Source: a virus (Duplodnaviria > Caudoviricetes). From it: a DNA stretch of 52,799 nt. Below are positions 5,080-45,501 of the stretch, in pieces (positions within the stretch are counted from its first letter, which is position 1; each line of letters starts with the position of its first letter). The translations under genes were made by a program, and so were the position numbers. Below the pieces are notes generated by a model, which saw only the letters and a program-made list of their open reading frames with translations, searched no databases and was not told the DNA's origin. The DNA lies in the IMG/VR virus record IMGVR_UViG_3300019889_000237, positions 1 through 52,799 of that record; one strand, given 5' to 3'.

Positions 5080-6327
5080 TCAGCTGGTGGCAGCGCGCGC
5101 GTCTGCGGCGAGCTGCAAGTAACCGACTCGGGCCTGTGGGTCGCGCACCTCGTCGGCGAGACGCTCGAAGTGCGCCGCCTTGGTGAGGTGCTCTTCCCGG
5201 TGGTCGGCCTTGGCCGTGTCTCCGGTGGTGCGGGTGAGAACGGGTCCACCCGGGGCCGGCGCGCTCATGGCCTTCGTCAGCTGACCTGCGAGGTCGCCGA
5301 CCTGTGCCTGGAGCGCCTTCACCAGCTCGGTGAGGTCATCGTTCGGTGCGGCGGAATCGCTGCCGCCTTCACCGCCCGTGGCCGCCTTCACGGCAGTCAC
5401 GGGCGGGGGCTCGGTGCTCGGCGCCTCGACGGCGGCCGGAGCGGGGGACGCGACGTCCGGCGCCACGGCCTTCTCGGTGTCCGGCTTGTCGGCCAGATCG
5501 ACGTGTGCCACAGCGGGCTCCTTCTTCTCGCGGCAGATGAACCACTCCAGGGCCTTGACCGCCTGAAGCAGCAATTCGATGTCACAGACCTCGGACGTCG
5601 CGCCCTCGGCCAAGCAGACGGCCTCGGACTGGATGAGGCCGGCGATGATGGCGATGGCCTGGTGCGCGTCGGCGACGTCGCCCGCCTGGTCGCCCTTGCG
5701 CACGGCGACGAGGTCGAAGCCCTTCACGGCCGCCTCGTACGCGGCGAGCGGCTCGCCGGCACGGTCGTCGACCTCGGGTGTATCAGCAGGGGCCTCGTGC
5801 AGCTCTTCCACCTTGACCAGGGAGCGGTCAAAGTCGACGGTCCCGGGCGTGACCGCCAACGGGCCGGGCTTGAGCGCCTTGGCCAGGGTGAGCGTGCAGG
5901 TCGGGTTCGCCGGCCGGTCGACCAAGCTCACTTCGACGATCTGGCCACCCACGATCCGGCCGTTGGGCGCGGACGCGTCCTTGACGACCTTCGGCGACCG
6001 GATGCCGATCGAGTAGCCCTTGAGGACGCCGCGCTCGACCTTGCGGGCCGAGTTCGCGTCCACGACCAGGCTCTTCAGGTCCCACCCGCCGTCCGGCAGG
6101 TGGGAGATCTCGGTGCCGACACCGGCCGCGATGCTGGAGTGCTGCTCGCGGACGTTCGCGCCCGTGGTGAACCAGGTCGGCATCGCGGTCTTGAGCCAGT
6201 CCGGGTCACAGATCTGCCGGTCGAGGTCGAGGTCCGGGCTGGTCGCCCGGCCGAACACCACCAGGTCGCCGTTGGCGTCCCGCTCGTGCTTGACGATCTC
6301 GGCGTAGACGGCGGTGGTGTCAGTCAT
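5080..6327 (-). CDS. Capsid maturation protease fused to scaffold-like C-terminus
   Basis: VREQH, LKGYSIG, EVSLVDRPANP prohead protease motifs; coiled-coil tail. Confidence 0.88.
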   Translation of the reverse strand: MTDTTAVYAEIVKHERDANGDLVVFGRATSPDLDLDRQICDPDWLKTAMPTWFTTGANVREQHSSIAAGVGTEISHLPDGGWDLKSLVVDANSARKVERGVLKGYSIGIRSPKVVKDASAPNGRIVGGQIVEVSLVDRPANPTCTLTLAKALKPGPLAVTPGTVDFDRSLVKVEELHEAPADTPEVDDRAGEPLAAYEAAVKGFDLVAVRKGDQAGDVADAHQAIAIIAGLIQSEAVCLAEGATSEVCDIELLLQAVKALEWFICREKKEPAVAHVDLADKPDTEKAVAPDVASPAPAAVEAPSTEPPPVTAVKAATGGEGGSDSAAPNDDLTELVKALQAQVGDLAGQLTKAMSAPAPGGPVLTRTTGDTAKADHREEHLTKAAHFERLADEVRDPQARVGYLQLAADARAATS

Positions 6328-9112: not shown

Positions 9113-10627
9113 TCACGCTGCTCGCTTCGATCGCCGGATCCAGTCCAGCGCGTCGGGCTGGTTGCCCGGCGGGTTGTAGAACGCGAGCAGGAGCGCGTCC
9201 GCGTCATCGGGTGAGCGGTTGATCCGCTCCCGGGTCTCGTCCTTGGTCTCGACCTGCACCCGGCCCGACGAGTCGAGCTTGTAGTGCGGGGCGACCAGCT
9301 GACTGATCAGTCGCTCCCGGTCACGTTCCTCGAGCCCGGACAGGTCCCATCGGCCTTCCTCGGCCAGCTGCCGGCCGGTCCACCAGATCTCGGAGCGCTG
9401 GCGCATGAACCGGATCGGGTCGCCCGCGGTCTCGCTCACGTTCACGCCGACGACCTTCGCGGTGTGCGCGCCGGTCTCGCCGAGCTCGATGAGCCGGCCG
9501 GTCAGCCCGAACCCGATCCCGATCACGTCGGTCTTGACGGTGGCCGCTCCGGTCTCCCGGATGGCCTGGAGCACGAGCCCGACGATGTGCATGGCGTCGC
9601 GCGAGCCGGTGCGCCAGGTGCGCCCGATGGACACGCCACGTCGCTCTCGGATGACGGTGGTGTCGCCCCCGGCACCGAAGTCCACGCCGAGCTCGACCGG
9701 GGTCAGCTCAGCCTCGGTGCGCGGGGTGTCGGTGGGCATCGCGCAGGCACGCAGCGCGGACAGCCGGATCACGCCGTCGTCGCTGTCCTCGGGGAACTCA
9801 CCGAGGACCTTCGAGATGTAGGTGGGGCTCTCCTCGCCGAACTCGCGGCGCAGGTCGTTCACGTACTCGTGGTTGACCAGCACCTCGGACAGCGCGGGCG
9901 GCACGGGCTCGCCGGTGAAGTTGGGGGTCGAGAACGCGCTGATGGTGAACACGTTCCACTGCTCGTCCTGGCAGTACTCGGCGAACTTGCTGGCCGGGTC
10001 GTCCGGGTTGCCCAGGGCGAGGATGCGGCAGTGCTGGCCGGTGGTGAGCGCCTTCGCGGCGGTCCAGAACTGCGGCACGATGCCGCAGGCCTCGTCCAGG
10101 ATGACGAGCACGTAGGTGGCGTGGTGGCCCTGGAAGCCGTGTTGGTCATGGTCGGCGGGCTTGCGGCCGAAGGCCATCAGCCGGTTGTCGATCTTCCACT
10201 GGGTGCCGAGCACCCGGCCCACGAACGGGCGGCCCAGCGAGGCGGCCCGGTGCGCGGCATCGTTGATTTCCGACCACAAGATGGCCTCGACCTGGGGGAA
10301 GGTCGGCGCGGTCGAGATGACCTTCGCGCTGCCGGGCGGGTGCGTCTGCATCCACCACGCGGCGATGCGGCTGGCCACCCGGGACTTGCCCGGCCCGTGG
10401 CAGGCCTTGACCGCGGTGAAGCGGTGGTCACGGACCGAGTCCATGATCTCTTTCTGGGTGGACCAGAGGAACTCGTCCAGCTCGTCGGCGACCCAGGCCG
10501 GTCCGTCCGCACGCCAGCGAGCCCGGTCGGCGTCCTCCAGCTCGTCGCGCCGGCGTTGCAGCTCACGCAGACGTTGCAGCTTCTCCAGCGGGGCTTCGAT
10601 GCGCATCGGCGCGGCCTCGTTCCGCAA
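9113..10627 (-). CDS. terL: Terminase large subunit 1 (portal-linked)
   Basis: Walker A ACHGPGKS, Walker B VILDEA, LGNP coupling motif, nuclease LGVDFG and RSPDDADAL; start could be 10606. Confidence 0.92.
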   Translation of the reverse strand: MRNEAAPMRIEAPLEKLQRLRELQRRRDELEDADRARWRADGPAWVADELDEFLWSTQKEIMDSVRDHRFTAVKACHGPGKSRVASRIAAWWMQTHPPGSAKVISTAPTFPQVEAILWSEINDAAHRAASLGRPFVGRVLGTQWKIDNRLMAFGRKPADHDQHGFQGHHATYVLVILDEACGIVPQFWTAAKALTTGQHCRILALGNPDDPASKFAEYCQDEQWNVFTISAFSTPNFTGEPVPPALSEVLVNHEYVNDLRREFGEESPTYISKVLGEFPEDSDDGVIRLSALRACAMPTDTPRTEAELTPVELGVDFGAGGDTTVIRERRGVSIGRTWRTGSRDAMHIVGLVLQAIRETGAATVKTDVIGIGFGLTGRLIELGETGAHTAKVVGVNVSETAGDPIRFMRQRSEIWWTGRQLAEEGRWDLSGLEERDRERLISQLVAPHYKLDSSGRVQVETKDETRERINRSPDDADALLLAFYNPPGNQPDALDWIRRSKRAA

Positions 10628-32914: not shown

Positions 32915-33268
32915 ATGCCTCGCCGACTGCTCGATGACCTGCGCTCGGGCCAGCTGCTCACCTGGAACGTGACCCGCGGGAAGTGCCGATACGGGCCGAA
33001 CGAGCAGTCCGTGCGCCAGGTCGGCGACCAGTGGCGGGGCGAGAGCTCGAACTCGTTCGACTGCGACTACGCACCGCAGGACATGTGCTTGGTCTGCGCC
33101 GGGCGCGGGTGGACCGCACTGTCGGTGGCCGAGACCGAGACCGCCCAGTACGACGAGGACGTCGCCGGTGGCCGCCGCCGGTGCCAGCCGTGCCGGGGCT
33201 CGGGCTACGTCCCGGGTGCGCACTGGCCGTGGCGGCACCCGCACCCAGGCCCGGTACGGAGGGGATGA
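32915..33268 (+). CDS. DnaJ-type zinc-finger protein
   Basis: CLVCAGRG and CQPCRGSG. Confidence 0.6.
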   Translation: MPRRLLDDLRSGQLLTWNVTRGKCRYGPNEQSVRQVGDQWRGESSNSFDCDYAPQDMCLVCAGRGWTALSVAETETAQYDEDVAGGRRRCQPCRGSGYVPGAHWPWRHPHPGPVRRG

Positions 33269-33480
33269 CGATGACGTTCACCTGGTGGCTGATCCCGATC
33301 GTCGTGCTCGGGCTCGCCCTGATCGTGGCCCCGTTCATCGGCGCGGCCTGGGCGCGGGACTGGCGGCCGACGCACTGCGGACGCTGCGGCCGGGAGCTGA
33401 TCGGGTCGCCGCCGATGCACACGCTCACCGACCGGATGCACTGCCGGTGGCTGGCCGACTCGCAGGGAGACCGGCTGTGA
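33265..33480 (+). CDS. Small membrane protein with Cys/His motif
   Basis: TM helix then CGRCG. Confidence 0.55.
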   Translation: MTMTFTWWLIPIVVLGLALIVAPFIGAAWARDWRPTHCGRCGRELIGSPPMHTLTDRMHCRWLADSQGDRL

Positions 33481-35036
33481 CGCTCTCCCTGGTCCCGCCG
33501 CCGCCGTGCCCGGACATCCGGCCGCCGACCGGGGCGTGGTTCCCCTGGTTCGCGAACGAGACCGCGCCGCTGGCTCACTCGGGCATGCGGACCTCGTCGG
33601 AGTTCCGCCGCCGGTGGACCAAGGGGAGTCCTCTGCTGTTCGCGCTGGTGTACTTCCCACATCACCTCAAGCTCCAGGGCTTGAACCCGCCCATCGTCAC
33701 GTTCAACCAGCTGCACCTCGGGCTGTGCCGGGCGTCGAAGCGCTGGGTCCAGCCCAAGCGCTGGCGTGAGGCCTGGATCGCGCCGCGGGGGATCGGGAAG
33801 ACCTCGTGGGCGTTCCTGATCCTGCCGCTCTGGGCCCTCGCGCACGGGCACCGGAACTACTTCATGGCCTTCAGCGACACCACGGACATGGCCAACAACC
33901 AGCTGGCGAACCTGCGGATGGAGCTGGACCCGAACAGCGGCAACGCCTTGCTGCTCCAGGACTACCCGTCGCTGCGTCAGCGTCGGGTGCGCGGCGGGTC
34001 GAACACGAAGTCGATCGTCGTGGCGAACGGCGGCACGATCCGGGCCAACGGCCTGTCGGAGAACACGCTCGGCGCGAAGTCCGGGGCCGACCGGCCGGAC
34101 CTGTTGGTGTTCGACGACATCGAGCCGTTGGAGTCGACGATGTCGGACAACGAGCGGCGCAAGCGGATCGAGGCCATCACCACGAAGGCGCTGCCGATGG
34201 GCGCCGACCACGCGGCGTCCATCATCCTGGGTACGACGACGTCCTACGACTCGGTCATCGACCAGATCGCCCAGCACGCCCGTGGCCGCAAGCACCACGC
34301 CTGGGTGGCGAACTCGGGCATCACGCCGCGCGTCTTCCCGGCGGTGCAGGTGGACCCGCTCACCGGCGAGGAGCGCTCGATCTGGCCGGAGCGCTGGCCA
34401 CTGACCGAGACGCACCTCGGCCAGGAGCTGCGCCGCACGCCCGAGGGCGACGTACCGCCGGAGTTCGAGAAGAACTACCTGCTCGACCCGTCCCCGTACG
34501 GCACCGAGGCCGGGTCGTTCTGGCGGCCCGAGATGTTCAAGCGCCGCACGTCCCGCTCGTTCGGGGGCGTGTTCGAGCACGCGATGTACATCGACGTGGC
34601 GACGACCTCGCACGCGAAGTCCGACCGGACCGCGATCGTCATCGTCGGCCGGGACCCGGCCCGGCGGCACGCGGTCGTGGAGTACGCGCAGGCGTACCGG
34701 ATCCCCGCGGAGGAGCTGCGCCAGCGGATCCACCAGCTGTGCGCGCGCCAGCCCACGTTGCGCACGGTCGTCGTGGAGACCAACCAGGGCGGCGACTTGT
34801 GGCGGCAGATGCTCTCGCCGCTGCCGGCCGGGGTGCGGTTGATGACCGAGCACGTGTCCAACTCGAAGCAGGACCGGTTTGAGCAGGCGTTGCAGTGGTA
34901 CATGACCGGCCGCGTCTTCCACGCCATCGAGCACGTCGAGCTGGAACGCGAGATGGTGATGTTCCCGAGCAAGGCCGTGAACGACGATCTTCCCGATGCC
35001 GCCTGCGGAGCGTTACGTTGGGCGTTCGATAAGTAA
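33477..35036 (+). CDS. terL: Terminase large subunit 2 (orphan, no portal)
   Basis: YFPHH, Walker A APRGIGKT, RPDLLVFDDIE Walker B, LGT, WPERW, nuclease YIDVA..DRTA, VETNQGG, NDDLPDA. Confidence 0.88.
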   Translation: MTLSLVPPPPCPDIRPPTGAWFPWFANETAPLAHSGMRTSSEFRRRWTKGSPLLFALVYFPHHLKLQGLNPPIVTFNQLHLGLCRASKRWVQPKRWREAWIAPRGIGKTSWAFLILPLWALAHGHRNYFMAFSDTTDMANNQLANLRMELDPNSGNALLLQDYPSLRQRRVRGGSNTKSIVVANGGTIRANGLSENTLGAKSGADRPDLLVFDDIEPLESTMSDNERRKRIEAITTKALPMGADHAASIILGTTTSYDSVIDQIAQHARGRKHHAWVANSGITPRVFPAVQVDPLTGEERSIWPERWPLTETHLGQELRRTPEGDVPPEFEKNYLLDPSPYGTEAGSFWRPEMFKRRTSRSFGGVFEHAMYIDVATTSHAKSDRTAIVIVGRDPARRHAVVEYAQAYRIPAEELRQRIHQLCARQPTLRTVVVETNQGGDLWRQMLSPLPAGVRLMTEHVSNSKQDRFEQALQWYMTGRVFHAIEHVELEREMVMFPSKAVNDDLPDAACGALRWAFDK

Positions 35037-35642: not shown

Positions 35643-36098
35643 ATGAACCAGCACGCCCCGTGGCCCTACGTCGAGGCCACGCCCAAGCCGAAGACCCGCA
35701 AGGGCCTGACCGTCGCCATCGCCGCCGGCACGTTCCTGCTCGGCCTGATGTTCGGCAGCCTGCCGACCGCCGACGAGCCCGCCCGCGCGGCGACAACCTC
35801 GGCCCCGCACGTGCCCTACGTCCCGGACGTCCAGCAGGTGCCCGCTCCGGCTCCGGCCGACGGGTCCATCTCGAACGGGATCTACGAGATCGGCGACGAG
35901 GTCGCCCCCGGCAAGTACAAGAGCCCGGGCCCGGACGGCGGCGTCATCAAGCTCTGCTACGTCGACGTGCAGCGCGGGGAGAAGTTCCTGCTCCAGGAGA
36001 TCAGCAACGACGGCCAGGTCCGGATCACCATCCCGGCCAGCATGGTCGGAGCCGAGATCGAGGTGTCCGGCTGCGCGCCGTTCACCAAGGTCGCCTGA
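35643..36098 (+). CDS. Membrane-anchored exported protein
   Basis: TM helix, Pro linker, GIYEIGDEVAPGKYKS...CY domain of the type seen in actinobacterial surface proteins. Confidence 0.72.
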   Translation: MNQHAPWPYVEATPKPKTRKGLTVAIAAGTFLLGLMFGSLPTADEPARAATTSAPHVPYVPDVQQVPAPAPADGSISNGIYEIGDEVAPGKYKSPGPDGGVIKLCYVDVQRGEKFLLQEISNDGQVRITIPASMVGAEIEVSGCAPFTKVA

Positions 36099-36099
36099 C

Positions 36100-36315
36100 G
36101 TGAAGACCGCGCCGCGCTGGTGGGCCGTGCCCGGTGGCCCGGACAACCGCAACTACCGACTGACCGACGGCGTGCAGCGCTGCCACCTGTGCAATGTGAT
36201 CGAGCAGCCGCTACGCGTCCCGTCGGGAGACGAGTACACCGATCGGGCCGCCGCGCACCTGGTGCACGGGGTCCGGGCACACCTGGACGCCACCTCGAAG
36301 GAATGGACCGCCTGA
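36100..36315 (+). CDS. Small C2H2-like protein
   Basis: CHLC...HLVH. Confidence 0.5.
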   Translation: MKTAPRWWAVPGGPDNRNYRLTDGVQRCHLCNVIEQPLRVPSGDEYTDRAAAHLVHGVRAHLDATSKEWTA

Positions 36316-36328
36316 CCCTGGACGCACG

Positions 36329-36365
36329 AAAAGAGCCCCCCTCCGCCAGTAGCGGAGGGGGGCTC
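36329..36365 (-). terminator. Intrinsic terminator at convergence of early and late arms
   Basis: 14-bp GC stem with AAAA on plus strand (U-tail for minus transcript). Confidence 0.82.
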
Positions 36366-36419
36366 AGTCGGCACGAGAGGACATCAAGCGCCAGGGCCCA
36401 GCGTACAGGCCGACGATGA

Positions 36420-36581
36420 TCAGGGAACGCGTCGAGGCCAGGTCGCCGGCAGGTTCATCGCGAGCACGGCGCAGGACAGGAACGTCAGGCCGAGCAAGGT
36501 CAGATCGATGCCGATCGCGCCACCCAGCGCGGCGACCAGGAAGCAGACGATGGCCAGGATGGCGAACACAATGGCGATCAT
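36420..36581 (-). CDS. Small two-TM membrane protein (lysis accessory?)
   Basis: MIAIVFAILAIVCFLVAALGG...; follows holin. Confidence 0.6.
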   Translation of the reverse strand: MIAIVFAILAIVCFLVAALGGAIGIDLTLLGLTFLSCAVLAMNLPATWPRRVP

Positions 36582-36584
36582 GGG

Positions 36585-36890
36585 CTAGTTCCTTCCGACG
36601 GTGACTGCGCCCGGACCCGCCTGGTAGGCGGCCAGGAATGTGAGCACCGGCGGGATCACCAGCAGGATCGCCGACTGCCAGAACGTGGGCAGAGTGCCGA
36701 GCAGGTCCGGGTTGGTCTGCATCGCGTTCAGGGTGGTGATGATGACGCCGACCAGCGCGCCGACGACGGTGGCCGCGATCGCCTTGGGCGACACGCCCTC
36801 GGTCTTCACGGCGGGCGCGGCGTGGTCCGGGTAGCCGGGGGTGGGGTCGGTCATGATGTCCTCCAGGGATTCGGGGAGCCGGCCCGTCAT
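36585..36890 (-). CDS. Holin-like protein
   Basis: Two TM helices directly after endolysin. Confidence 0.7.
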   Translation of the reverse strand: MTGRLPESLEDIMTDPTPGYPDHAAPAVKTEGVSPKAIAATVVGALVGVIITTLNAMQTNPDLLGTLPTFWQSAILLVIPPVLTFLAAYQAGPGAVTVGRN

Positions 36891-37726
36891 GACGACGGGC
36901 CGGGGGAGTTTGGGAGCTGGGCGCCCTTCGAGATGTCGCCGAGCATCACGTGCGAGCGGCGGTCGTACTCCTGCCAGGTGCCGTACTCAACCCACATGAC
37001 CGGGATGCCCAGCTTCGCGGCCTGCTCGTCGGTCGGGGTCTCCGTCGGGCCGAGCCCGACGAAGTTGAAGCCGGTCAACAGACCGGCGACGTACACAGCC
37101 CGGCTCTTGTCCGGCTGGCTCTTCAGGATCACAGAGGCGTCCTCTCGGGGGACCGACACGGGGGATGTCTTCGCAGGTGCAACGACCGCGGGGGGTGCGA
37201 GGTCGCGCCCGACCGCGCGGCGGAACTCGCCCATATCCCAGAACGCCGGATCGATCTTGCGGCCGGGCGCCCACTCCCGGTGCGCGATCGCGCGCGACGC
37301 GGGCAGCTTCAGGTAGCGGAGCAGCATGGCCACTCCGCGGGGGTAGCTCTCGCGCTGCGCCGCAGTCCAGTCGTCGCGGGTACCGACGCTCTCGGCTTCG
37401 ACGCCGATCAGGTGCGAGTTGCCCCCGCTCGGGCACCACGCGACGGATCCGGTGCCGGCATGCCAGGCCTGCCCGGCGGCGACCACGATCCACGTCCCGG
37501 CTCGGTCGAGGCCTAGGTTGCACAGCGGCCCGGCCAGTCCGATCCGGCCGTTGACGACCACCTTCTCCGACGGGTACAGGCCGCTAGCCGCCCCGGCGGT
37601 GTGATGGCAGACGACGCCGCGCACGTCGGCCATCGCGCCATGCCCACGGGTGCGCCACCCGACGACCTCCCGGACAGGGAGCCCACCGCCGCGTAGCGCG
37701 TCCGCGAGCCAGGTCATGTAGGGCAT
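36887..37726 (-). CDS. Endolysin, N-acetylmuramoyl-L-alanine amidase (Amidase_2)
   Basis: WLADAL, GWRTRGH, CHHTAG, AWHAG, IGVEAE, AHREW..RKIDP. Confidence 0.9.
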   Translation of the reverse strand: MPYMTWLADALRGGGLPVREVVGWRTRGHGAMADVRGVVCHHTAGAASGLYPSEKVVVNGRIGLAGPLCNLGLDRAGTWIVVAAGQAWHAGTGSVAWCPSGGNSHLIGVEAESVGTRDDWTAAQRESYPRGVAMLLRYLKLPASRAIAHREWAPGRKIDPAFWDMGEFRRAVGRDLAPPAVVAPAKTSPVSVPREDASVILKSQPDKSRAVYVAGLLTGFNFVGLGPTETPTDEQAAKLGIPVMWVEYGTWQEYDRRSHVMLGDISKGAQLPNSPGPSS

Positions 37727-37731
37727 TCGCC

Positions 37732-37938
37732 TTACTCCCGCTCGTCGTCGTCGGTCAGCTCGCCCGGGTCGCGGTCCTCGCACCAATCGTCGACCCGTGG
37801 CGGGACGTCGACGGGATCGTCGGGCGAGGTCGCGGGCATCATCTGCGTCGCCGAGATGTTCGCGGCGGGTGCGTTGGCGTCGTAGACCCAGCGGCCCTCG
37901 CGGTTCAAGCTCCAGTCCCCGATCGGACTCACCTCCAT
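37732..37938 (-). CDS. Small acidic protein
   Basis: ORF immediately upstream of lysin. Confidence 0.55.
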   Translation of the reverse strand: MEVSPIGDWSLNREGRWVYDANAPAANISATQMMPATSPDDPVDVPPRVDDWCEDRDPGELTDDDERE

Positions 37939-37940
37939 GG

Positions 37941-37983
37941 GCTCGGCGTCCGGCCGTCAGGGAGCGCCGGCCGGACGCCGAGC
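37941..37983. terminator. 16-bp perfect stem-loop
   Basis: GCTCGGCGTCCGGCCG / CGGCCGGACGCCGAGC. Confidence 0.65.
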
Positions 37984-38139
37984 TCAGCCGTGCTGATCGT
38001 TGTTCTTGTGCGCCTGCGCCTCGAGCAGGGCCACCCGCTCGGCGAGCTTGGTGTGATGCTCGGTCTGGCCGATCACGTAGGTCCAGAGCAGATGCAGATC
38101 TACGCGGGTGGCCGGTAGCAGGTCTCTCAGCCGTGCCAC
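37984..38139 (-). CDS. Small hypothetical protein
   Basis: RBS GGGGAG; LAERVALLE coiled coil. Confidence 0.45.
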   Translation of the reverse strand: MARLRDLLPATRVDLHLLWTYVIGQTEHHTKLAERVALLEAQAHKNNDQHG

Positions 38140-38334
38140 GGCCCGCTCCCCCGCGGTGCGACCTCTCGGCGGGGGAGCGCGATCTCACGGGAGCGCTGGA
38201 TCGGGATGCGTTGCATCAGCCGGTGCGCCCGGTCCTGCGAACGTCGGACCTCAGCCTCGCGCCGCTCGATCCGGTGGTCGTGGTGCACGGCGTAGGGCAA
38301 CAGGGCGGCGAACACCAGCCACCGCCGCATGGCT

Positions 38335-38487
38335 TCACAGTCGTGCACGCAACCACCTCCGGAGCTGGACCCACCACGGTGGGACGTAGCGCGGGCACTC
38401 GCAGACCAGGCACGGCCCGTGGTGGAACAGGTGTGCGTCGCGCCGGTGATGGCACGACACGCAGCGCCAGCCCCAGCGCACGTTCAT
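38335..38487 (-). CDS. Small Cys/His-rich protein
   Basis: ATGA overlap with sortase stop; CVSCHH...H...CLVCEC. Confidence 0.55.
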   Translation of the reverse strand: MNVRWGWRCVSCHHRRDAHLFHHGPCLVCECPRYVPPWWVQLRRWLRARL

Positions 38488-39086
38488 GACGCCAGGTCAG
38501 CCCAGACGATCTCGTTGGAGACGTAGTGCCCGGACTGGCGGTCGAACTCGCCGCCGCAGGTGATCAGCCGCAGCGTCGGTGTCTCGGTCTTGAGGTAAAC
38601 GTCCTCGGTCGGGAATGCGGCCTTCGGGAACGAGGCGACCGCGCTGACCACGAACCGCAGCCGTGACTCGTCCTTGCGGTCGATCAGGATCTCGTCGCCG
38701 GGCACCAGCTCGCCGAGGCGCGCGAAGATGCCGGGGAAGCCCTTGCGGCCGTCCGGCCCGATGCCGTCGACGTGCCCAGCGATGACGGCCGGACCGTTCT
38801 CGCCCGGCTGGTACTCGTCCCCGTCGAACGCCGGGTCCCGCCCGGCGTACCAGCCCGCAAGTAGTGGCTGGTCGACCGGCGGCGGGATCAGCTCGTTGTT
38901 CTCGTCGATGGTCAGCGGGATCAGGTTCGACTCGGCCCCGATCTTCGGGATGATGATCGCGCTGGGGTCGGGCGTCGGGATCTCGTCGACCACGACCGGC
39001 GGCGGCTCACGCGGCGGGTCAGCGACGAACTCGGTACCGCACCCCGCGAGGAGCGCGGCACCGAGCATCAGGGCGGTCAGTCTCAC
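38484..39086 (-). CDS. Class F sortase with lipoprotein signal
   Basis: LAGC lipobox; IPKIG, AGWY, AVIAGHVD, FARL..L.PGDEI, LRLITCGG, Y..N.IVWA. Confidence 0.9.
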   Translation of the reverse strand: MRLTALMLGAALLAGCGTEFVADPPREPPPVVVDEIPTPDPSAIIIPKIGAESNLIPLTIDENNELIPPPVDQPLLAGWYAGRDPAFDGDEYQPGENGPAVIAGHVDGIGPDGRKGFPGIFARLGELVPGDEILIDRKDESRLRFVVSAVASFPKAAFPTEDVYLKTETPTLRLITCGGEFDRQSGHYVSNEIVWADLAS

Positions 39087-39673
39087 GCAGGCCCGCCGCC
39101 GGTGTTCACGCCGCCGGACGGGATGACGACCTCGTCGTCGTTGCCGACGATGACGTCCTCCTCGCAGGCCACGCCGTCGTCATCGCTGTCGAGGTCGTTC
39201 GGGTCGTTCCGGTCGGCGTCGAGGATGCGCTGGGCTTCCTCGTCCGAGACCTCGTCGCAGTCGACGTCGTCGTCCGGAGCCGGTGTCGCCGGCGTGGTGG
39301 TCACGGTGGACGTCGGCGCCGGGTCGTCGCACTTGTCCTTGCGCTTCTCGACGGCGTCGACGTACTTGCGGTCGAGACGATCGATCCGACCCTTCAGCGC
39401 GTCCAGGCCAACGCGCTCCGCTCCGCTGATCTTGACCTCGCCGTCGATCACGACGGTGATATCTCCGACCGTGATGGTGGTCGCGTCGCGTGCCTCGGCG
39501 GCGAGACGGACCCGCTCTCGGTCGTCCTTGGCTGAGCGGAGGTCGGTGAGCGCGTTGCCCTCGGCGATCCGGGCCTTATCGCACGCGTTGCTGTCGTCCT
39601 GCGCCAGGGCGGGGGACGCGGTCAGCACGGACAGCGCCAGGACGGCGCCGGCCAGTAGAGCGGTTCGATTCAT
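39083..39673 (-). CDS. Secreted protein with Excalibur-like Ca-binding motif; candidate sortase F substrate
   Basis: Sec signal ending ALA; DCDE..EAQ..LDSDDDGVACE; C-terminal PSGGVNTGGG. Confidence 0.78.
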   Translation of the reverse strand: MNRTALLAGAVLALSVLTASPALAQDDSNACDKARIAEGNALTDLRSAKDDRERVRLAAEARDATTITVGDITVVIDGEVKISGAERVGLDALKGRIDRLDRKYVDAVEKRKDKCDDPAPTSTVTTTPATPAPDDDVDCDEVSDEEAQRILDADRNDPNDLDSDDDGVACEEDVIVGNDDEVVIPSGGVNTGGGPA

Positions 39674-39715
39674 GGTCTCTCCTTGGGGGCGACGTCCTTC
39701 ACAGAGAAGGACGCG

Positions 39716-40075
39716 TCAGCGCGCGCAGCGTTGTGTGGGGATGGGGTTGGTCGATCTTGTTCGGTCGGCCTCGTCCAGCTGCGCGAGGTATCGGTCCAGC
39801 ACCGCACGACCCTCGTCGGGGGAGGCTGCGCGGTCGGTCAGTAGTTCTCGCTGCGCCTGCCGGTCGGTGCGTCCGGCCTGCGCGGCGACGCCCAGGTAGG
39901 TAACGACCTCGTCGAGCAGGCCCTGATAGCACTCGTTCACCTGGCGCTGCGCCTGCACGTTCGTCACGAGAAACAGGGAGAGCAACACCACGATGAGGGT
40001 GTCCACGGCGAGCACGGCGACGGTGGCGATGCGCAGCCCGTCCACCTGCGTACGGGTCGATTCGGGATCAACCAT
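39716..40075 (-). CDS. Membrane protein
   Basis: One TM helix plus helical ectodomain with 2 Cys. Confidence 0.65.
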
Positions 40076-40811
40076 CGAGCAACCCTCCGTCGGGGTCGGG
40101 CGGGATCGGCTCGCCGGTGGACGTGACGCAGCCGAGGCCGGTCTCGCCGCTGGCGAACTCGACCGTCTGGAGCGTGCTGCCGTCCGGGCAGGTTGGTCCG
40201 GGATCGCCCTGCTCGCCTTCCGGTCCTTGCTCGCCCTGCGGCCCCATCGGTCCGGCCGGGCCGGGGATCGACTCGCCCGGCTGCCCGGGCTGGCCATCGA
40301 CGCCGGCCGGCCCAGCGCTGCCATCGCTCCCGGGCTGGCCGTCCGCGCCCGGCTGGCCCTGCGGTCCCATCGGGCCGGGGACCGTGGAGTCCGCGCCCGG
40401 CTGGCCGTCCGCGCCCGGCTCTCCCGGGTCGCCCTTCGGCCCAACGATCGACTCGCCGGCCGGCCCGCGCTCGCCGGCTGGGCCGGGGATCGGAGCGCTC
40501 TGCGCCTCGGCCCCGCGCTGGCAGAGGTTCTGACCCGCGGGCGTCTGGACGACGTCGCCGCGTGTGCACGCGGCGGTCACGGACTGGCCGAGATCCTGGT
40601 ACTGCTGGGCCGTGGTGCCGAGTTGGTCCTCGACGCTGCCGGCGCTCTGGGTGAGCCACACGCCGAATCCCACGAGCAACAGACCGATGACCACGATGAT
40701 CGCGATCCACCAGCGGGACGCCGGACGCTCGTCGTCCTTGCGGTGCATGCCATCGACCAGCGCCGGGTCAGGGGGTGGCGCGATGGCTAGCCCGTTCCGG
40801 TGCTGGCCCAT
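40068..40811 (-). CDS. Membrane-anchored collagen-like protein
   Basis: TM helix, interrupted Gly-X-Y repeats, terminal Cys pair. Confidence 0.8.
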
Positions 40812-41061
40812 CCTCGTCCTCGTCCTTCTCCAGGATCTCAGGTCGCTCGGGAACGCGCAGTCCGCGTTGGGCGAGTTCGGTCTCCAGGGTGAAGATGTGC
40901 GCGACGGCGGCGACGAACTTCCGTTGCAGCTCGCGGTACCCGCGCCGCACCGATCGGGAGTCCTCGGAGACCCTCCTCGATCTGGTGGCCAGCACGGCGG
41001 CGAGCCCGGCGAGAAGCCCGGTCAGCCCCGTAAAGACAGCCGAGATCACCTCGACGGACAT
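40768..41061 (-). CDS. Membrane protein with coiled coil
   Basis: N-terminal TM; RBS AGGAGG. Confidence 0.65.
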   Translation of the reverse strand: MSVEVISAVFTGLTGLLAGLAAVLATRSRRVSEDSRSVRRGYRELQRKFVAAVAHIFTLETELAQRGLRVPERPEILEKDEDEDGPAPERASHRATP

Positions 41062-41083
41062 GAGCGGCTCCGGCTTCTTCCTC

Positions 41084-42814
41084 CTACACGATCGGTTCTC
41101 CCGCGCGCAGCTGGCCGACCGCCACTGGCCTGCCCGCGCTCATCCCTCCCACGGTGACCGGCTCGGCCGCGTGGTAGCGGCCGAGCGCGAGCGGTTCCCC
41201 CGACCAGAGGTCTCCCCCGACTCGCGCCCGGCCTATCCCGGTAACGAGCGCGGCGGCCCCACCGGTACGCACGTGCACGGCCGCGTGGATGACCTCGACG
41301 AGCGCGATGCCGACACAGCTCGCCGCCGCGCCGCCGGCCTTGCTGAACACCTCGGCGGGGTCGATGTCGACGGCGGCCGTGCCAGCGCCGGTGGCCACCG
41401 CACCGCCGGTCCTGGCGTGCACGGCGGGGACGTGGTGCTCCAGCTCGCCGGTACCGGCGCCGCACACCGCCGCGCCGCCGGAGAGCGCGTGCACGGCGGG
41501 TGGGACGAGGGCAGCGGAGCCGCTGCCGCCCCCGAGCGCAGCGGCCCCGCCTGTCTTGATGCGAACGAACTCGCGCGCCCCGGCACCGGTCGCCTCGACG
41601 GCCGCGCCGCCGGAGAGCGCGTGCACGGCGGGATGCTGGATCTCGAGAACGCCGGAGCCCGCCCCGGACGCGGCTGCACCGCCGGTCCGGACGATGGTCC
41701 CGGCGGTGTCGTGCACGGCCTCGCCGACGCCAGCACCGAGCGCCGCCGCGCCGCCAGCCCGGTCGTAGACCGCGGCCGGGACGACGTCGCGCGTGCCCGC
41801 GCCGGCGGACGCCGCCGCGCCGCCGCCGGTGTACGAGCGGACGAGACTGCGTGCGCCGGAGCCCGCGCCGGTGGCTGCCGCGCCTCCGGCCTTGTCGTAG
41901 ATGGTGACCGCGTCGAGCTCGGCCTCGCCGGAGCCCGCCGCGTCGGCCGCTGCGCCGCCGGTCCGGTCGTACGTCGTGGGGTGCTCGACGTCCTGCGCAC
42001 CAGAGCCGGCACCGAGCGCAGCTGCACCGCCTGCCTTGTCGTAGGTCGTGGCCGTGTCGTGCACGCTCGCGCCCGAGCCTGCGGACGCCGCCGCTGCCCC
42101 GCCGGTCCTGGGGTTGGTCGCGTTGACGACCCTCTCGCCCGAGCCCGCGGAGAGCAGCGCCGCGCCGCCGGCCTTGTCGTAGGTGGCCGGATGCGTGACC
42201 GTGCTCGTACCAGAGCCTGCGCTCGTGGCGACTGCACCGCCGGTCTTCGCGTGCGTCTCGTGCTCGTCGAACACCTTCGCGCCGGAGCCGGCTCCGAGCG
42301 CGGCTGCGCCGCCGGTCTTCGCGTAGATCGTGAACGTCGTGAAGGTGACGTAGGCGTCGATCGGACCCGTGCTGCTGGCGACCGGGGTGCCGTACGGAGT
42401 GGGCAGCGTCGGCCCGGCCGTGACGGCCTGCTGGCGAGTCATGGCGGCCGTGTTGTCCCGGGAGACGACCACGGACGGTGTGCCCGGGTCATTCCAGGCC
42501 GGGCCGATCCAGTACGGCACGCCGTTGGTGACGGTGATGATGTTGGCGCCGGAGAACGTGAAGACGCGTTCGGCCTCGGAGGTCGCCGTGAGCGTGAGCG
42601 TGTCGGACTGCGCGAGCAGCGCGCCCGGCTCACCCGTGCTGTCCGCGTAGATCGCGAACCGGCACGTCGTCGTGCCGGCAGCGTCGAGCGAGATCCGGGC
42701 GTGGCCGGTGACTACCGGGCCGGTCGCGCTCGGTGTTGCTTGGGAGACCCAGACCCGGGGGGCGCTCGACGCGCTGGTGTTGATGCCGTCGGTGGTCTTG
42801 CCGAAGGTGGCCAC
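41084..42814 (-). CDS. Tail fibre-like protein with (K/R)(T/A)GGAAA.GAGSG repeats
   Basis: N-terminal beta domain followed by repeats of about 26 aa; tail module. Confidence 0.72.
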   Translation of the reverse strand: MATFGKTTDGINTSASSAPRVWVSQATPSATGPVVTGHARISLDAAGTTTCRFAIYADSTGEPGALLAQSDTLTLTATSEAERVFTFSGANIITVTNGVPYWIGPAWNDPGTPSVVVSRDNTAAMTRQQAVTAGPTLPTPYGTPVASSTGPIDAYVTFTTFTIYAKTGGAAALGAGSGAKVFDEHETHAKTGGAVATSAGSGTSTVTHPATYDKAGGAALLSAGSGERVVNATNPRTGGAAAASAGSGASVHDTATTYDKAGGAAALGAGSGAQDVEHPTTYDRTGGAAADAAGSGEAELDAVTIYDKAGGAAATGAGSGARSLVRSYTGGGAAASAGAGTRDVVPAAVYDRAGGAAALGAGVGEAVHDTAGTIVRTGGAAASGAGSGVLEIQHPAVHALSGGAAVEATGAGAREFVRIKTGGAAALGGGSGSAALVPPAVHALSGGAAVCGAGTGELEHHVPAVHARTGGAVATGAGTAAVDIDPAEVFSKAGGAAASCVGIALVEVIHAAVHVRTGGAAALVTGIGRARVGGDLWSGEPLALGRYHAAEPVTVGGMSAGRPVAVGQLRAGEPIV

Positions 42815-42819
42815 CGGGT

Positions 42820-45501
42820 CTACCTCCGTACCGGGGTGCCGGAGCTGAACTGGCCGATGGCGACCGGCACGCCGGAGCGCATCCGTCCACCTCGTCGCCC
42901 GCGGCCGGAGCCCACGCCGAGCACGGCGCCGCCCCCCGCCTTCGCGTGGTCCGCGGGATGGATGACCTCAACCAGGCCGATCCCGGCGACCAGCACCGCC
43001 GCGCCACCGGTCCGGACGTAGACCGTGGCCGACGTCCGGTCCTGGATCCCAGCGCCGGCGCCGGTCGTGCTCGCGCCGCCGGTCTTCGCGTGCACCAAGG
43101 CGGGCGTCAGATCGACGGAGCCGGAGCCGGCACCGCGCACGGTGGCGCCGCCGGTGCGGTCGTGCCGGACGGCAGGGACGTGCTCAGCGGTCCCTGATCC
43201 GGCCACTGACGCGCTCGCGCCGCCGACGCGGGTGTGGACTACCGCCGATGCGATCGTGTACCCGCCGGATCCGGCCGTCGTCGTCGTCGCGCCACCGGTG
43301 CGGGGGTAGACGTCCGGGTGCTGGGATTCTCGTGCGCCGACCCCGGCGCCCACGCCCACCGCGCCGCCGCCCTTGCTGTACTCGACACCGCCGCCGGTCT
43401 GGCGCAGGCCGGAGCTCGCGCTGCGAGCTGCGCCGCCGCCGGTCCGGACGTAGACGGTGGCCGAGGTGACGCTCTGCGCGCCCGACCCGGCGGTGACACG
43501 GGCGGCGCCGCCGGTCTTCTCGTGTCGGGCAGCCGAGACGAGCTCGACGGCACCGGACCCGGCAGCACCGGCAGCGGCACCGCCGAACTCGGCGTGGATG
43601 GTAGCGGGTGTGCGCACCTTCGCGCCGGCGCTCGCACCGCGCGCGGCGGCGCCGCCGGTGCGGACGTAGGTCGTGGCCGAGGTGACAGCCTTCGCTCCGG
43701 ATCCTGCGCTGGTGCGGGCCGCTCCGCCGGTCCTGGCGTACACGGCAGGCACCGAGACGGTCTTCGCGCCCGATCCTGCGCTGACGCGGACTGCGCCGCC
43801 GGTCTTGCTGTAGGTCGTGGGGTTCGTGACCGTCTTCGCGCCAGACCCCGCACAGCGCGCCGCTGCGCCACCGGTCTTGTCGTGGGTCGTGCCGGACGGG
43901 TCGTCGTCGGCCGGTTCGAGGACCTCCAGGAACGAGATCTTGGCGATGCCCTCGCCGGACGACCCGGACGCGATCGTGGTCTTGTGGTACGCCCCGCACT
44001 TGTAGTACCAGCCCGACTGGTCGGTGAAGTCCGAGATCGGCCAGTCGTACTGCGGCGAGGCGAGCGGCGCCAGGTCACTGACCTCGCCCGCGACGCCCCA
44101 GACCTTGAGCCGATCGTCCTCGATCCGGATCCGGAACGTGAGCCGCGTGCTGGTCGTGATGCCCGTGATGAGGTTCGCCAGCCCGGGGCCGTTCTTGAAG
44201 ATCCGTACACGCGGCGTGACCGGGCTACCGCCCGACGTCCACTCGGCCGACAGGATCAGCGGAATGGGGCTGTCGCCCGCGCCGTGGATCTGGGAGATGA
44301 TCAGTTCCTTGCGCGGGTTCGAGCCGCCGGTGATGCTCGTCGGATCCGCACTGGTGGTGATGGTCATCTGCCAGCGACCGGACCCGTTCGGGTCCATCGC
44401 CGCGTTGGCGTAGCCGCTCTTGTAGTGCTGGCGCAGCTCCATGCGGACGGCGCCGGACGCGCCCGAGGTGGTGAACCCGTCGACCGGCGCGACGCAGTTC
44501 ACGAACCCGTCGTCATCGACGAAGAACCCGGCGGACTCGAAGCTGTCGAGCGCGGGCTGGTTGATCTGCTCGGCGTCGCCGTCGCCCGAGTCCTCCGGCG
44601 TGGTCAGGTGCCAGTACGACAGGTCGAGGACATCGCTGGGTAGCTGGTCCGGCGGGACGTTGATGACCGACTTCGCTCCGGAGCCTGCGCTGGTGCGGGC
44701 CGCTCCGCCGGTCTTCGGGTTCGTCTTGCCGATCGCCTTCGCGCCCGACCCGGCTCCGGTGCGCACGGCGCCGCCGGCCTTGTCGACGAAGTTGGCCGGC
44801 AGGACCGACTTCGAGCCCGACCCGGCGCTGGATCGTGCCGCCCCGCCTGCCTTCGAGTAGGTCGTGCCGGAGGGCACGGGGAGCAGGGCGACGAGATGCG
44901 CCGTCTTCGTGAAGCTCTGCGTCGTCGTGGTCGTGACCGACCCCGACGCACCGGCCACTGCTTGAGCCTTGCGAGCCGCGTGCACCAGCCGCGAGGCGGG
45001 CGCCCCGGCCGGGGCCGACGCGGTGAACGTGCTCGGCGTCGTCCAGGTGGTGACGTCGTACGTGCCCGCCAGCCACACGAGCAGCCGGTCCGCCCCGGTC
45101 GTGGTGACCGACACGGCCGGCGACGCGGTGACGCTCGTGCCGCCGCTGGTCGCACCGCTGAAGACATCGATCGGGTCTCCGGAGGTGACGCAGCCACGGA
45201 ACGCCATGGCGAACCCGGTCCGCCACACCGACCCCGTCCAGGTGAACGAGTACGTACCGCTGTCCGCGCCGGTGGCCCGCTTCCAGAACACGTAGGTGTC
45301 GTGGTCCTGGCTGCCGGTCGCGGCCTGATGCGATTTCTCGATGAACCCGGACGGCGGGGTGACCGCCGCCGTGTTCTCCTTGTAGACGATCACCAGGATG
45401 ACGTCGTTGGCCTGTACCCCGGCTGGCACGGCGACCGCCGCGCTGGCGCCGCTGGCCTCGGTGAGGTAGGTGCCTGCGGCGACGAACGTGGGTACCGCCA
45501 C
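42820..45501 (-). CDS. Tail fibre-like protein with embedded PL7 (alginate lyase-like) domain
   Basis: Same repeats; LDLSYWHLTTP, RMELRQ, QIH, YYKCGAY. Confidence 0.82.
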   Translation of the reverse strand: MAVPTFVAAGTYLTEASGASAAVAVPAGVQANDVILVIVYKENTAAVTPPSGFIEKSHQAATGSQDHDTYVFWKRATGADSGTYSFTWTGSVWRTGFAMAFRGCVTSGDPIDVFSGATSGGTSVTASPAVSVTTTGADRLLVWLAGTYDVTTWTTPSTFTASAPAGAPASRLVHAARKAQAVAGASGSVTTTTTQSFTKTAHLVALLPVPSGTTYSKAGGAARSSAGSGSKSVLPANFVDKAGGAVRTGAGSGAKAIGKTNPKTGGAARTSAGSGAKSVINVPPDQLPSDVLDLSYWHLTTPEDSGDGDAEQINQPALDSFESAGFFVDDDGFVNCVAPVDGFTTSGASGAVRMELRQHYKSGYANAAMDPNGSGRWQMTITTSADPTSITGGSNPRKELIISQIHGAGDSPIPLILSAEWTSGGSPVTPRVRIFKNGPGLANLITGITTSTRLTFRIRIEDDRLKVWGVAGEVSDLAPLASPQYDWPISDFTDQSGWYYKCGAYHKTTIASGSSGEGIAKISFLEVLEPADDDPSGTTHDKTGGAAARCAGSGAKTVTNPTTYSKTGGAVRVSAGSGAKTVSVPAVYARTGGAARTSAGSGAKAVTSATTYVRTGGAAARGASAGAKVRTPATIHAEFGGAAAGAAGSGAVELVSAARHEKTGGAARVTAGSGAQSVTSATVYVRTGGGAARSASSGLRQTGGGVEYSKGGGAVGVGAGVGARESQHPDVYPRTGGATTTTAGSGGYTIASAVVHTRVGGASASVAGSGTAEHVPAVRHDRTGGATVRGAGSGSVDLTPALVHAKTGGASTTGAGAGIQDRTSATVYVRTGGAAVLVAGIGLVEVIHPADHAKAGGGAVLGVGSGRGRRGGRMRSGVPVAIGQFSSGTPVRR

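Follow-up and report, generated by a model that had tools for sequence, protein, structure and literature searches.

The viral record IMGVR_UViG_3300019889_000237, which at its full length of 52,799 bp is the window analysed here, contains on its minus strand a gene for a class F-type sortase directly behind, and overlapping with, a gene for a secreted acidic protein that carries a sorting tag at its extreme C-terminus. Judged from sequence comparison, the secreted protein is very probably the dedicated substrate of the sortase, and I lean, with some reserve, towards the view that the two genes are an accessory cassette by which the phage attaches a protein of its own to the host wall late in infection. 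The elements on which this view turns are the following.

39083-39673, minus strand: open reading frame (ORF) of the secreted acidic protein, 196 amino acids
38484-39086, minus strand: ORF of the class F-type sortase, 200 amino acids
39083-39086, minus strand: GTGA overlap of 4 nucleotides between the substrate stop and the sortase start (the plus strand reads 'tcac')
39086-39130, minus strand: sorting tag VVIPSGGVNTGGGPA, residues 182-196 of the substrate, with the expected cut between Thr191 and Gly192

An earlier reading of the same DNA (hereafter the original prediction) had described two ORFs coupled by GTGA, one of them a phage-encoded class F lipoprotein sortase with a histidine and a cysteine motif, and these points are confirmed, with the class best worded as class F-type. 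In searches with profile hidden Markov models the enzyme matches the Pfam family Sortase (PF04203) with 60.2 bits (cut-off 26.6; 59.8 bits in the genome search), while its only family match in NCBIfam is class_F_sortase (NF033748), with 148.4 bits and E 1.2e-43 against a curated cut-off of 166. The protein consists of a lipobox, LLAGC (Cys16, nucleotides 39039-39053), a proline-rich tether and, from about residue 40, the catalytic domain, in which His105 (38772-38774) is part of IAGHVD and Cys177 (38556-38558) part of LRLITCGG; both residues are invariant in an alignment of 30 sequences. Among close homologues of the phage clade (about 65 clusters with 50-100% identity, none of them on a contig longer than 77 kb), the His motif is retained in 63 of 65, the Cys motif in 64 of 65 and the lipobox in 56 of 65, and frequent frameshifts or loss of Cys177 were not seen in the relatives. 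An AlphaFold model made with 30 homologues (mean predicted local distance difference test, pLDDT, 90.1; predicted template modelling score, pTM, 0.79) gave 118 PDB matches at E ≤ 0.001 with Foldseek, and every match listed is a sortase, from class A, C, D or E, at 12-21% identity and with template modelling scores, by target, of up to 0.66-0.74. A sequence search found no solved relative of the sortase at E ≤ 0.01, which fits the statement, in the accessible part of a 2024 review, that structures of class F sortases have not yet been determined (PMC11231552). In 50,697 deposited phage records tblastn found no match to the sortase or to the substrate, and the viral protein models of BFVD include none with a sortase fold at E ≤ 0.001.

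With respect to its active site the enzyme may depart from the textbook. No arginine is conserved after Cys177, where instead Asn191 (38514-38516) and Tyr188, together forming a Y..N pattern, are invariant, and Arg173 in LRLITC (38568-38570) is near-invariant; the same pattern holds in the aligned cellular class F sortases. The register of the canonical β8 Arg was compared with a class E sortase by eye; hhalign covered residues 42-138 only, and the PDB profile alignments end at the TC motif. The His-Cys-Arg triad may thus, going by these alignments, be inapplicable to class F.

A quick maximum-likelihood tree of 107 sortase domains, made up solely of relatives of this sortase and with no other class as outgroup, places the enzyme in an all-viral clade of 9 rows (Shimodaira-Hasegawa-like approximate likelihood ratio test, SH-aLRT, 92) with an inner clade of 5 rows (95), and this viral clade nests inside a group of 50 rows that are mostly from Pseudonocardiaceae. 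The nearest cellular homologues are named class F sortases by NCBI (e.g. P0157, P0162 and P0173), and 594 cellular relatives are present in genome contigs, at 45-50% identity at best.

The upstream gene encodes a protein that begins with a signal peptide (residues 1-25; …SPALA/QDD, signal-peptide-like by eye), in line with the earlier claim of secretion, and continues with a helical hairpin (about 26-119, with invariant Cys31 and Cys115), a Thr/Pro linker, an Excalibur-like domain (136-171, with invariant Cys139 and Cys170), a short acidic linker and the tag. The mature protein, of 18 kDa, is strongly acidic, with an isoelectric point of 4.10 and 33 aspartates. An Excalibur-like calcium-binding motif had also been proposed, and the loop DxDxDGxxCE is indeed present as DLDSDDDGVACEE; the protein alone scores 14.6 bits with the Excalibur family PF05901 (cut-off 22), and in the substrate family, for which 68 homologues were found and 41 aligned at full length, 40 of the 41 members match PF05901 at E ≤ 1, the best at 1.6e-6. 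The Atlas structure model of the substrate is of low confidence (pLDDT 0.59), and its look-alikes are helical hairpins only. Coiled-coil matches of the N-terminal domain, to PspA, SMC and the PgrA surface-exclusion models, were rejected as compositional rather than homologous.

The substrate ends in VIPSGGVNTGGGPA, its stop codon coming five residues past Thr191. No hydrophobic segment and no basic tail are present, and only GGPA follows the TG, so that the ending without transmembrane anchor or basic tail noted in the original prediction stands. The stretch PSGGVNTG at residues 185-192 corresponds to the class F motif P-x-G-G-V-x-T-G-G-G, and across the 41 homologues P185, G187 and G192 are invariant, T191 is present in at least 90%, and the last 15 residues are the best-conserved part of the protein, with the family pattern V-[VA]-[VT]-P-x-G-G-[VI]-x-T-G-[GV]-[GW]-[PR]-[AR]; such an ending is, on the evidence of this alignment, far beyond chance. 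The residues after the TG are GGPA in 19 homologues, GWRR in 7 and VGPRDS in 4, and relatives that end in GWRR or GRRR are still without a membrane segment. The ending is thus real, as originally described, but it is not an unknown one, since it corresponds to the class F motif already curated in NCBIfam as NF058571, 'GVDTG sorting domain' (cut-off 29 bits). Canonical cellular and viral neighbours of related sortases match this family (L062 with 32.8, L025 with 25.2 and L050 with 21.5 bits), tail-less proteins from Amycolatopsis match its model positions 1-14 only, and the 25 commonest families listed for the 41 substrate-family members do not include it. The motif is known at the database level; what sets this protein apart is the missing tail. 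Internal stretches of a 576-residue tail-region protein of the phage (41084-42814), away from its C-terminus, resemble the core of the tag.

The tag and the lysines of the substrate bear on the idea that the sortase joins the substrate to another protein, either in a pilus-like polymer or on phage particles exposed at lysis. Class C sortases can link proteins to lysine side chains, and the cassette comes after the tail-fibre genes, which would suit such a role. However, no lysine of the mature substrate is conserved across the 41 homologues, some of which carry a single one, and a pilus-like polymer is unlikely for this reason. Tagging of virions, which the original prediction had offered as an option, is disfavoured as well: when all phage ORFs were checked, the protein at 39083-39673 was the only one ending in the tag, and virion proteins have no signal peptides and are assembled in the cytoplasm, while enzyme and substrate are exported. 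Taken as a whole I consider protein joining very improbable.

The original prediction had also proposed a survey of phages for the pair, and the pair proves to be conserved. Searches with the substrate profile gave 23 viral loci, and in each of the five that retain the tag region (judged by alignment for four and by eye for L003) the sortase gene follows immediately, whereas the remaining 18 match the Excalibur stretch only and have a sortase in 0 of 18 cases. Conversely, a search with the sortase gave 28 viral loci, 27 of them evaluable, among which 18 have a tail-less tagged gene upstream (plus L034 by eye), 4 have a tag with transmembrane segment and basic tail (three being identical copies), and 5 were left unclassified. 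The passenger domains vary, with Excalibur present in only 6 of the 18 tail-less viral loci, while the tag persists. By eye, an overlap of stop and start of 4 or 1 nucleotides is seen in nine viral loci (L030, L032-L036, L040, L041 and L046). Most proteins found in metagenomes with the substrate profile were generic Excalibur proteins, which were used as a control and not as family members: of 58 complete Excalibur proteins without the tail-less tag, two have a sortase, and in both the tag is followed by a transmembrane segment and a basic tail. When the family profile was compared with 1.84 billion representatives, 337 matched at E ≤ 1e-10, and the best 150 of these comprise at least 62 with a tail-less tag, 10 with tag and tail, and 78 with neither by the script pattern, some of the latter being tail-less variants by eye and the rest generic Excalibur proteins. 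It is the tag, rather than the passenger domain, that predicts the presence of a sortase, and with the pair conserved the neighbour, initially called a candidate substrate, can on these comparisons very probably be regarded as a dedicated one. Some metagenome loci (L148, L152, L170 and similar) encode Excalibur proteins ending in …RVPPTGGPPYLALGALVLLGVALIAGRGVLRR, a different conserved C-terminal membrane signal, and no sortase relative was found by tblastn in their available DNA.

The same data speak to the possibility that the adjacency has no function and that the two genes are decaying cargo from a host, which I regard as extremely improbable. The best family score of the sortase lies below its cut-off, which speaks for decay, but the roughly 65 clusters of close homologues have intact motifs, at least 62 of the best 150 substrate representatives keep the tail-less tag, and the start/stop overlap is conserved. 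Moreover, a near-identical cassette is present in a second soil study, in which a contig covers positions 38665-40145 with 2 differences in 1481 nucleotides (K94R in the substrate and V35A in the upstream protein). Four sequencing runs are listed for the locus (36300-42900), all of them DNA from soil metagenomes in 2 studies and one of them a possible source of the window; no RNA run is among those listed. Soil-metagenome contigs of the two studies break at 38540-38579, the DNA for LRLITCGG, and several others join there with unlike flanks; the same soils therefore contain other sortase genes with that conserved stretch.

Among bacterial genomes the sortase search gave 79 loci, of which 75 were evaluable. 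With a script that looked for the motif P-x-G-[GA]-[VPAIQ]-x-T-G-x-G, 44 have an upstream tag with transmembrane segment and basic tail, 17 have the tag at the very end of the protein and 14 are unclassified; two of the 17 resemble matches by chance, and inspection by eye assigns L067 and L076 to the canonical type and L132 to the tail-less one. An example of the canonical type is found in Streptomyces, where a small protein ending in APDTG, a membrane segment and RRRR is followed by a lipoprotein sortase of class F. These cellular cassettes, consisting of an NF033748 sortase and an upstream NF058571 protein, resemble the phage pair in the invariant His, Cys and Y..N, in the frequent lipobox, in the gene order with its frequent stop/start overlap, and in the motif P-x-G-[GA]-[VPAI]-x-T-G-x-G. 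They differ from it in that the phage sortase is at best 45-50% identical to theirs, lies under the family cut-off and belongs to an all-viral clade, and in that the phage substrate, encoded in a late operon, stops 5 residues past the Thr, in contrast to the transmembrane segment and basic tail of the 44 in 75.

The tail-less tag is not specific to phages, for it is also found in Amycolatopsis chromosomes outside prophages. The Amycolatopsis pairs (L063, L068, L072, L073, L075, L077, L082, L090 and L112) have a tag that ends about 7-10 residues past the Thr; the proteins end in …PKGGIETGFGGTAR, and a class F sortase follows directly, as in the phage. The ending of these upstream proteins follows the pattern …PKGG(I/V)ETGFGG(T/M)A(R/A), with no membrane tail. 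In contrast to the phage pair, the passenger is Thr/Ser-rich and without Excalibur, the tag is TGFGG, and the sortase falls in a different clade. The neighbouring genes, examined in L073 and L090, encode trypsin-like proteases, an FKBP, a penicillin amidase, a GntR protein and a solute-binding protein, and because the pairs sit among such ordinary chromosomal genes, the tail-less design is not an invention of phages. Tail-less and canonical neighbours change places at least 8 times on the sortase tree, and one type of enzyme would therefore serve both designs.

These relatives help to judge whether the sortase could instead be a processing protease, in which case GGGPA would be hydrolysed off, or the thioester merely held, and a soluble calcium-binding protein would be released with no attachment to the wall; the released protein could then chelate cations or bind wall polymers around lysis. 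The design without a tail gives no membrane retention, the family lacks a conserved counterpart of the canonical β8 Arg, and the substrate is very acidic and has a calcium-binding domain, all of which would be compatible with processing. Nevertheless, in 44 of the 75 loci of cellular relatives the motif precedes a classical transmembrane segment and basic tail, indicating ordinary sorting, and the interchanges on the tree show one enzyme type with both designs. Sortases are, furthermore, generally poor hydrolases. I consider the processing alternative unlikely.

The tag subtype follows the sortase clade, with TGGGPA in that of the window, TGFGG in Amycolatopsis and TGLGG in L042, L045 and L048. 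This correspondence weighs on another alternative, in which the main or another target of the sortase would be the GVDTG-tagged surface proteins of the host, or the enzyme would compete for lipid II, so that anchoring or cross-linking in the host is re-routed or blocked before lysis. Actinobacteria are rich in class F sortases and tagged proteins, as the 594 relatives and the 8 sortase-domain genes in Pseudonocardia oceani illustrate, and the cassette is repeatedly found beside lysis genes. Yet the coupling of a tagged gene to the sortase is strict, the tag persists while the passengers change, and its subtype tracks the sortase clade, so that a host target seems to me quite unlikely.

I therefore return to wall attachment, for which the cleavage site, the acceptor, the timing and the biological purpose are inferred. 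Under this reading both products would be exported, the sortase being fixed to the external side of the membrane by its lipid anchor and proline-rich tether, and the 18-kDa acidic helical-hairpin/Excalibur protein being freed by signal peptidase. The sortase would recognise the extreme C-terminus, P-S-G-G-V-N-T-G-G-G-P-A, and cut after Thr191 with formation of a thioester at Cys177, after which the protein would be transferred to an amine of a wall precursor, probably the side chain of meso-diaminopimelate in lipid II. The cassette would be transcribed together with the late tail and lysis genes, and the phage protein would become a covalent component of the host wall towards the end of infection, with translational coupling and the tethered enzyme replacing the missing membrane-retention tail. 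The original prediction had named receptor masking or exclusion as the purpose of a covalent remodelling of the host surface. By analogy with Llp of phage T5, the most likely purpose of such a coat would be receptor masking, which would stop progeny and rival phages from binding to infected cells and debris.

Several observations weigh against wall attachment. The NF033748 score of 148.4 falls under the curated cut-off of 166, and the substrate of the window does not match NF058571 even at E ≤ 10. As no Arg is conserved after the Cys, with Asn191 in its place, the chemistry may differ from that of textbook sortases. A substrate without a membrane tail could diffuse away before it is used. The late timing is deduced from gene order only, and the masking role from analogy. 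In Actinoplanes, finally, the deletion of all four class F sortases gave no phenotype according to the part of PMC13251363 that was available, and on that source the anchoring of proteins to the wall by class F sortases has therefore never been demonstrated outside P. acnes.

A more far-reaching version, which I hold to be rather unlikely, would make this private, minimal sortase system a late weapon directed at the wall. The abundant, very acidic calcium-binding protein would be loaded onto amines of lipid II or stem peptides, cap the cross-linking sites and so prime lysis, and coat the sacculus against progeny and rival phages; the tail-less tag would then represent a second, membrane-independent sortase route that is shared with cellular class F.

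The pair sits in a long minus-strand array of late genes, between the tail-fibre and the lysis genes, with the following features around it.

41084-42814, minus strand: minor tail protein of 576 amino acids, with many Gly/Ala-rich repeats (K/R)TGGAAA-x-GAGSG and no family match
between the minor tail gene at 41084-42814 and the collagen-like fibre gene, minus strand: ORF of 97 amino acids
40068-40811, minus strand: collagen-like fibre
39716 to about 40090, minus strand: single-pass membrane protein, start uncertain, with homologues in L030, L032, L034, L035 and L092
39693-39722, minus strand: weak hairpin between the membrane-protein gene and the ribosome-binding site of the substrate gene (AAGGAGAG)
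38335-38487, minus strand: Cys-rich, zinc-ribbon-like ORF of 50 amino acids, its ATG overlapping the sortase stop (ATGA)
38127-38348 and 37984-38139, minus strand: two small ORFs of 73 and 51 amino acids, syntenic in L030, L032, L034 and L035
37941-37983, minus strand: strong 16-bp hairpin without U-tract, downstream of the small ORFs
between the hairpin at 37941-37983 and the endolysin, minus strand: ORF of 68 amino acids
36887-38188, minus strand: ORF of an amidase_2 endolysin (PF01510, phrog_880), probable start near 37759
36585-36890 and 36420-36581, minus strand: two small, holin-like membrane proteins; the lysis cassette spans 36420-37759
36333-36365, minus strand: strong terminator after the lysis cassette (z -6.89)

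In L030, L032, L034, L035 and a prophage-like region of P. oceani the cassette likewise lies between the tail-fibre and the lysis genes, and the block from the 97-residue ORF to the holin-like genes is common to L030, L032, L034 and L035, with the matches of L035 ending at the 51-residue ORF. The membrane-protein gene is taken as syntenic context; a weak ZorC match of this protein in PADLOC (E 0.0067) was disregarded. The 50-residue Cys-rich ORF has 71-73% identity in L030, L032 and L034 and is weaker in L031 and L035, and in related phages it is better conserved (71-73%) than the sortase (56-65%) and the substrate (36-45%). It has no Pfam, PHROG or PADLOC match, and PADLOC returned no defence system for the pair or the small ORFs.

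Two statements of the original prediction about these surroundings hold in part. Of the hairpins said to flank the block, that at 37941-37983 is genuine (-45.3 kcal/mol, z -3.88, equalled by 0 of 200 shuffles) but distant, about 500 nucleotides past the sortase stop and beyond three more small ORFs, whereas that at 39693-39722, tried as a terminator, folds at chance level (z -0.02, equalled by 100 of 200 shuffles). Among terminator-like hairpins with a U-tract, just one proved more stable than its shuffles when folded, namely the one after the holin-like genes. Similarly, the pair is next to the lysis genes in a loose sense, as the endolysin domain begins about 730 nucleotides downstream, with four small ORFs in between. 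In the region 36000-41500, 0 sigma-70-like promoters were found versus 0.1 expected, in a scan that does not cover the promoter types of actinobacteria.

The phage origin of the window, also part of the original prediction, is supported. CheckV rates the record, with its 'linear' ends, as 100% complete, and the genome has a G+C content of 70%. PHROG and Pfam scans identified a terminase, a portal-MuF fusion, a protease, tail tube, tape measure and amidase endolysin, several minor tail proteins (one with an alginate-lyase domain) and a collagen-like fibre, and further a DNA polymerase, a primase-polymerase, an exonuclease, a methyltransferase, endonuclease VII and HNH genes. The portal fusion is a protein of 926 amino acids (6320-9100, minus strand) in which the portal domain is joined to a Mu F-like head morphogenesis domain. 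Two ORFs match PHROG families of the terminase large subunit, 9113-10627 on the minus strand (phrog_2, 1.9e-31) and 33168-35036 on the plus strand (phrog_38, 1.3e-61), and neither has a Pfam match at E ≤ 0.001. The Alginate_lyase2 domain (PF08787, 63.6 bits) is located in a minor tail protein of 893 amino acids (42820-45501, minus strand), with which the phage may cut exopolysaccharide of the host during entry. No tyrosine or serine recombinase (integrase) domain was found in the phage genome, and the major head protein reaches no more than 33% identity with its counterpart in any deposited phage. These two observations point to a lineage that is uncultured and shows no lysogeny module, and the lifestyle looks virulent.

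The host is likely a Pseudonocardia-like, high-GC actinobacterium, as suggested by the resemblance of two loci to the window. On the chromosome of P. oceani KRD185 (region L092), minor tail and fibre genes are followed by the pair and then by a holin, and in a Pseudonocardia metagenome-assembled genome an Excalibur protein ending in VRPVGGVDTGGDA adjoins a sortase with 51% identity to that of the window. The P. oceani assembly G001 contains the prophage-type sortase twice (C2:21355-21786 and C3:5338663-5339094), with the same score and sequence, and no tyrosine integrase was found within about 290 kb of the chromosomal copy.

In the available part of the one preprint on phage sortases that I found (bioRxiv 10.64898/2026.10.24.761521), class B sortases are described from huge gut phages of more than 200 kb that infect Bacillota, with the statement that no phage sortases had been documented before. 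Those modules, as far as presented there, resemble the pair in that a putative substrate lies immediately upstream and display on the host wall is proposed, but they are of class B and have a full signal (PXTG, hydrophobic segment and basic tail), in contrast to the class F-type, tail-less system of a 53-kb actinophage. None of the papers found deals with a phage class F sortase or a tail-less GVDTG tag, although the supplements of the preprint may list more phage sortases, and literature searches for 'GVDTG' and NF058571 returned only papers whose titles and first abstract lines look unrelated. Going by the portions at hand of the two articles that cite Di Girolamo et al. (2019), SrtF of P. 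acnes is the one class F sortase to have been characterised, a calcium-independent housekeeping transpeptidase that is reported to use LPXTG substrates like class A (PMC8225981, PMC13251363); it shares the class label with the phage sortase, and is likened to it here from that description and not by sequence. Class F sortases as a group are given no known physiological role in the accessible parts of PMC13251363 and PMC11231552.

Class F sortases are widespread in actinobacteria, and their chemistry could hardly be studied in a simpler setting than a cassette with a single enzyme and a single private substrate. In twenty years the cellular class F systems are not known to have been assigned a function. 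The cassette would allow the cleavage site, the acceptor and the part played by Asn191 and Arg173, where textbook sortases have an Arg, to be addressed. It also shows that sortases encoded by viruses extend beyond the class B enzymes of the huge gut phages in the preprint, and its tail-less tag challenges the view that a membrane anchor and a basic tail are required of every sortase substrate. The tag may also offer protein engineering a new ligation specificity, G-V-x-T/G. If attachment to the wall is true, the cassette would represent a new covalent route by which phages remodel the envelope of their host.

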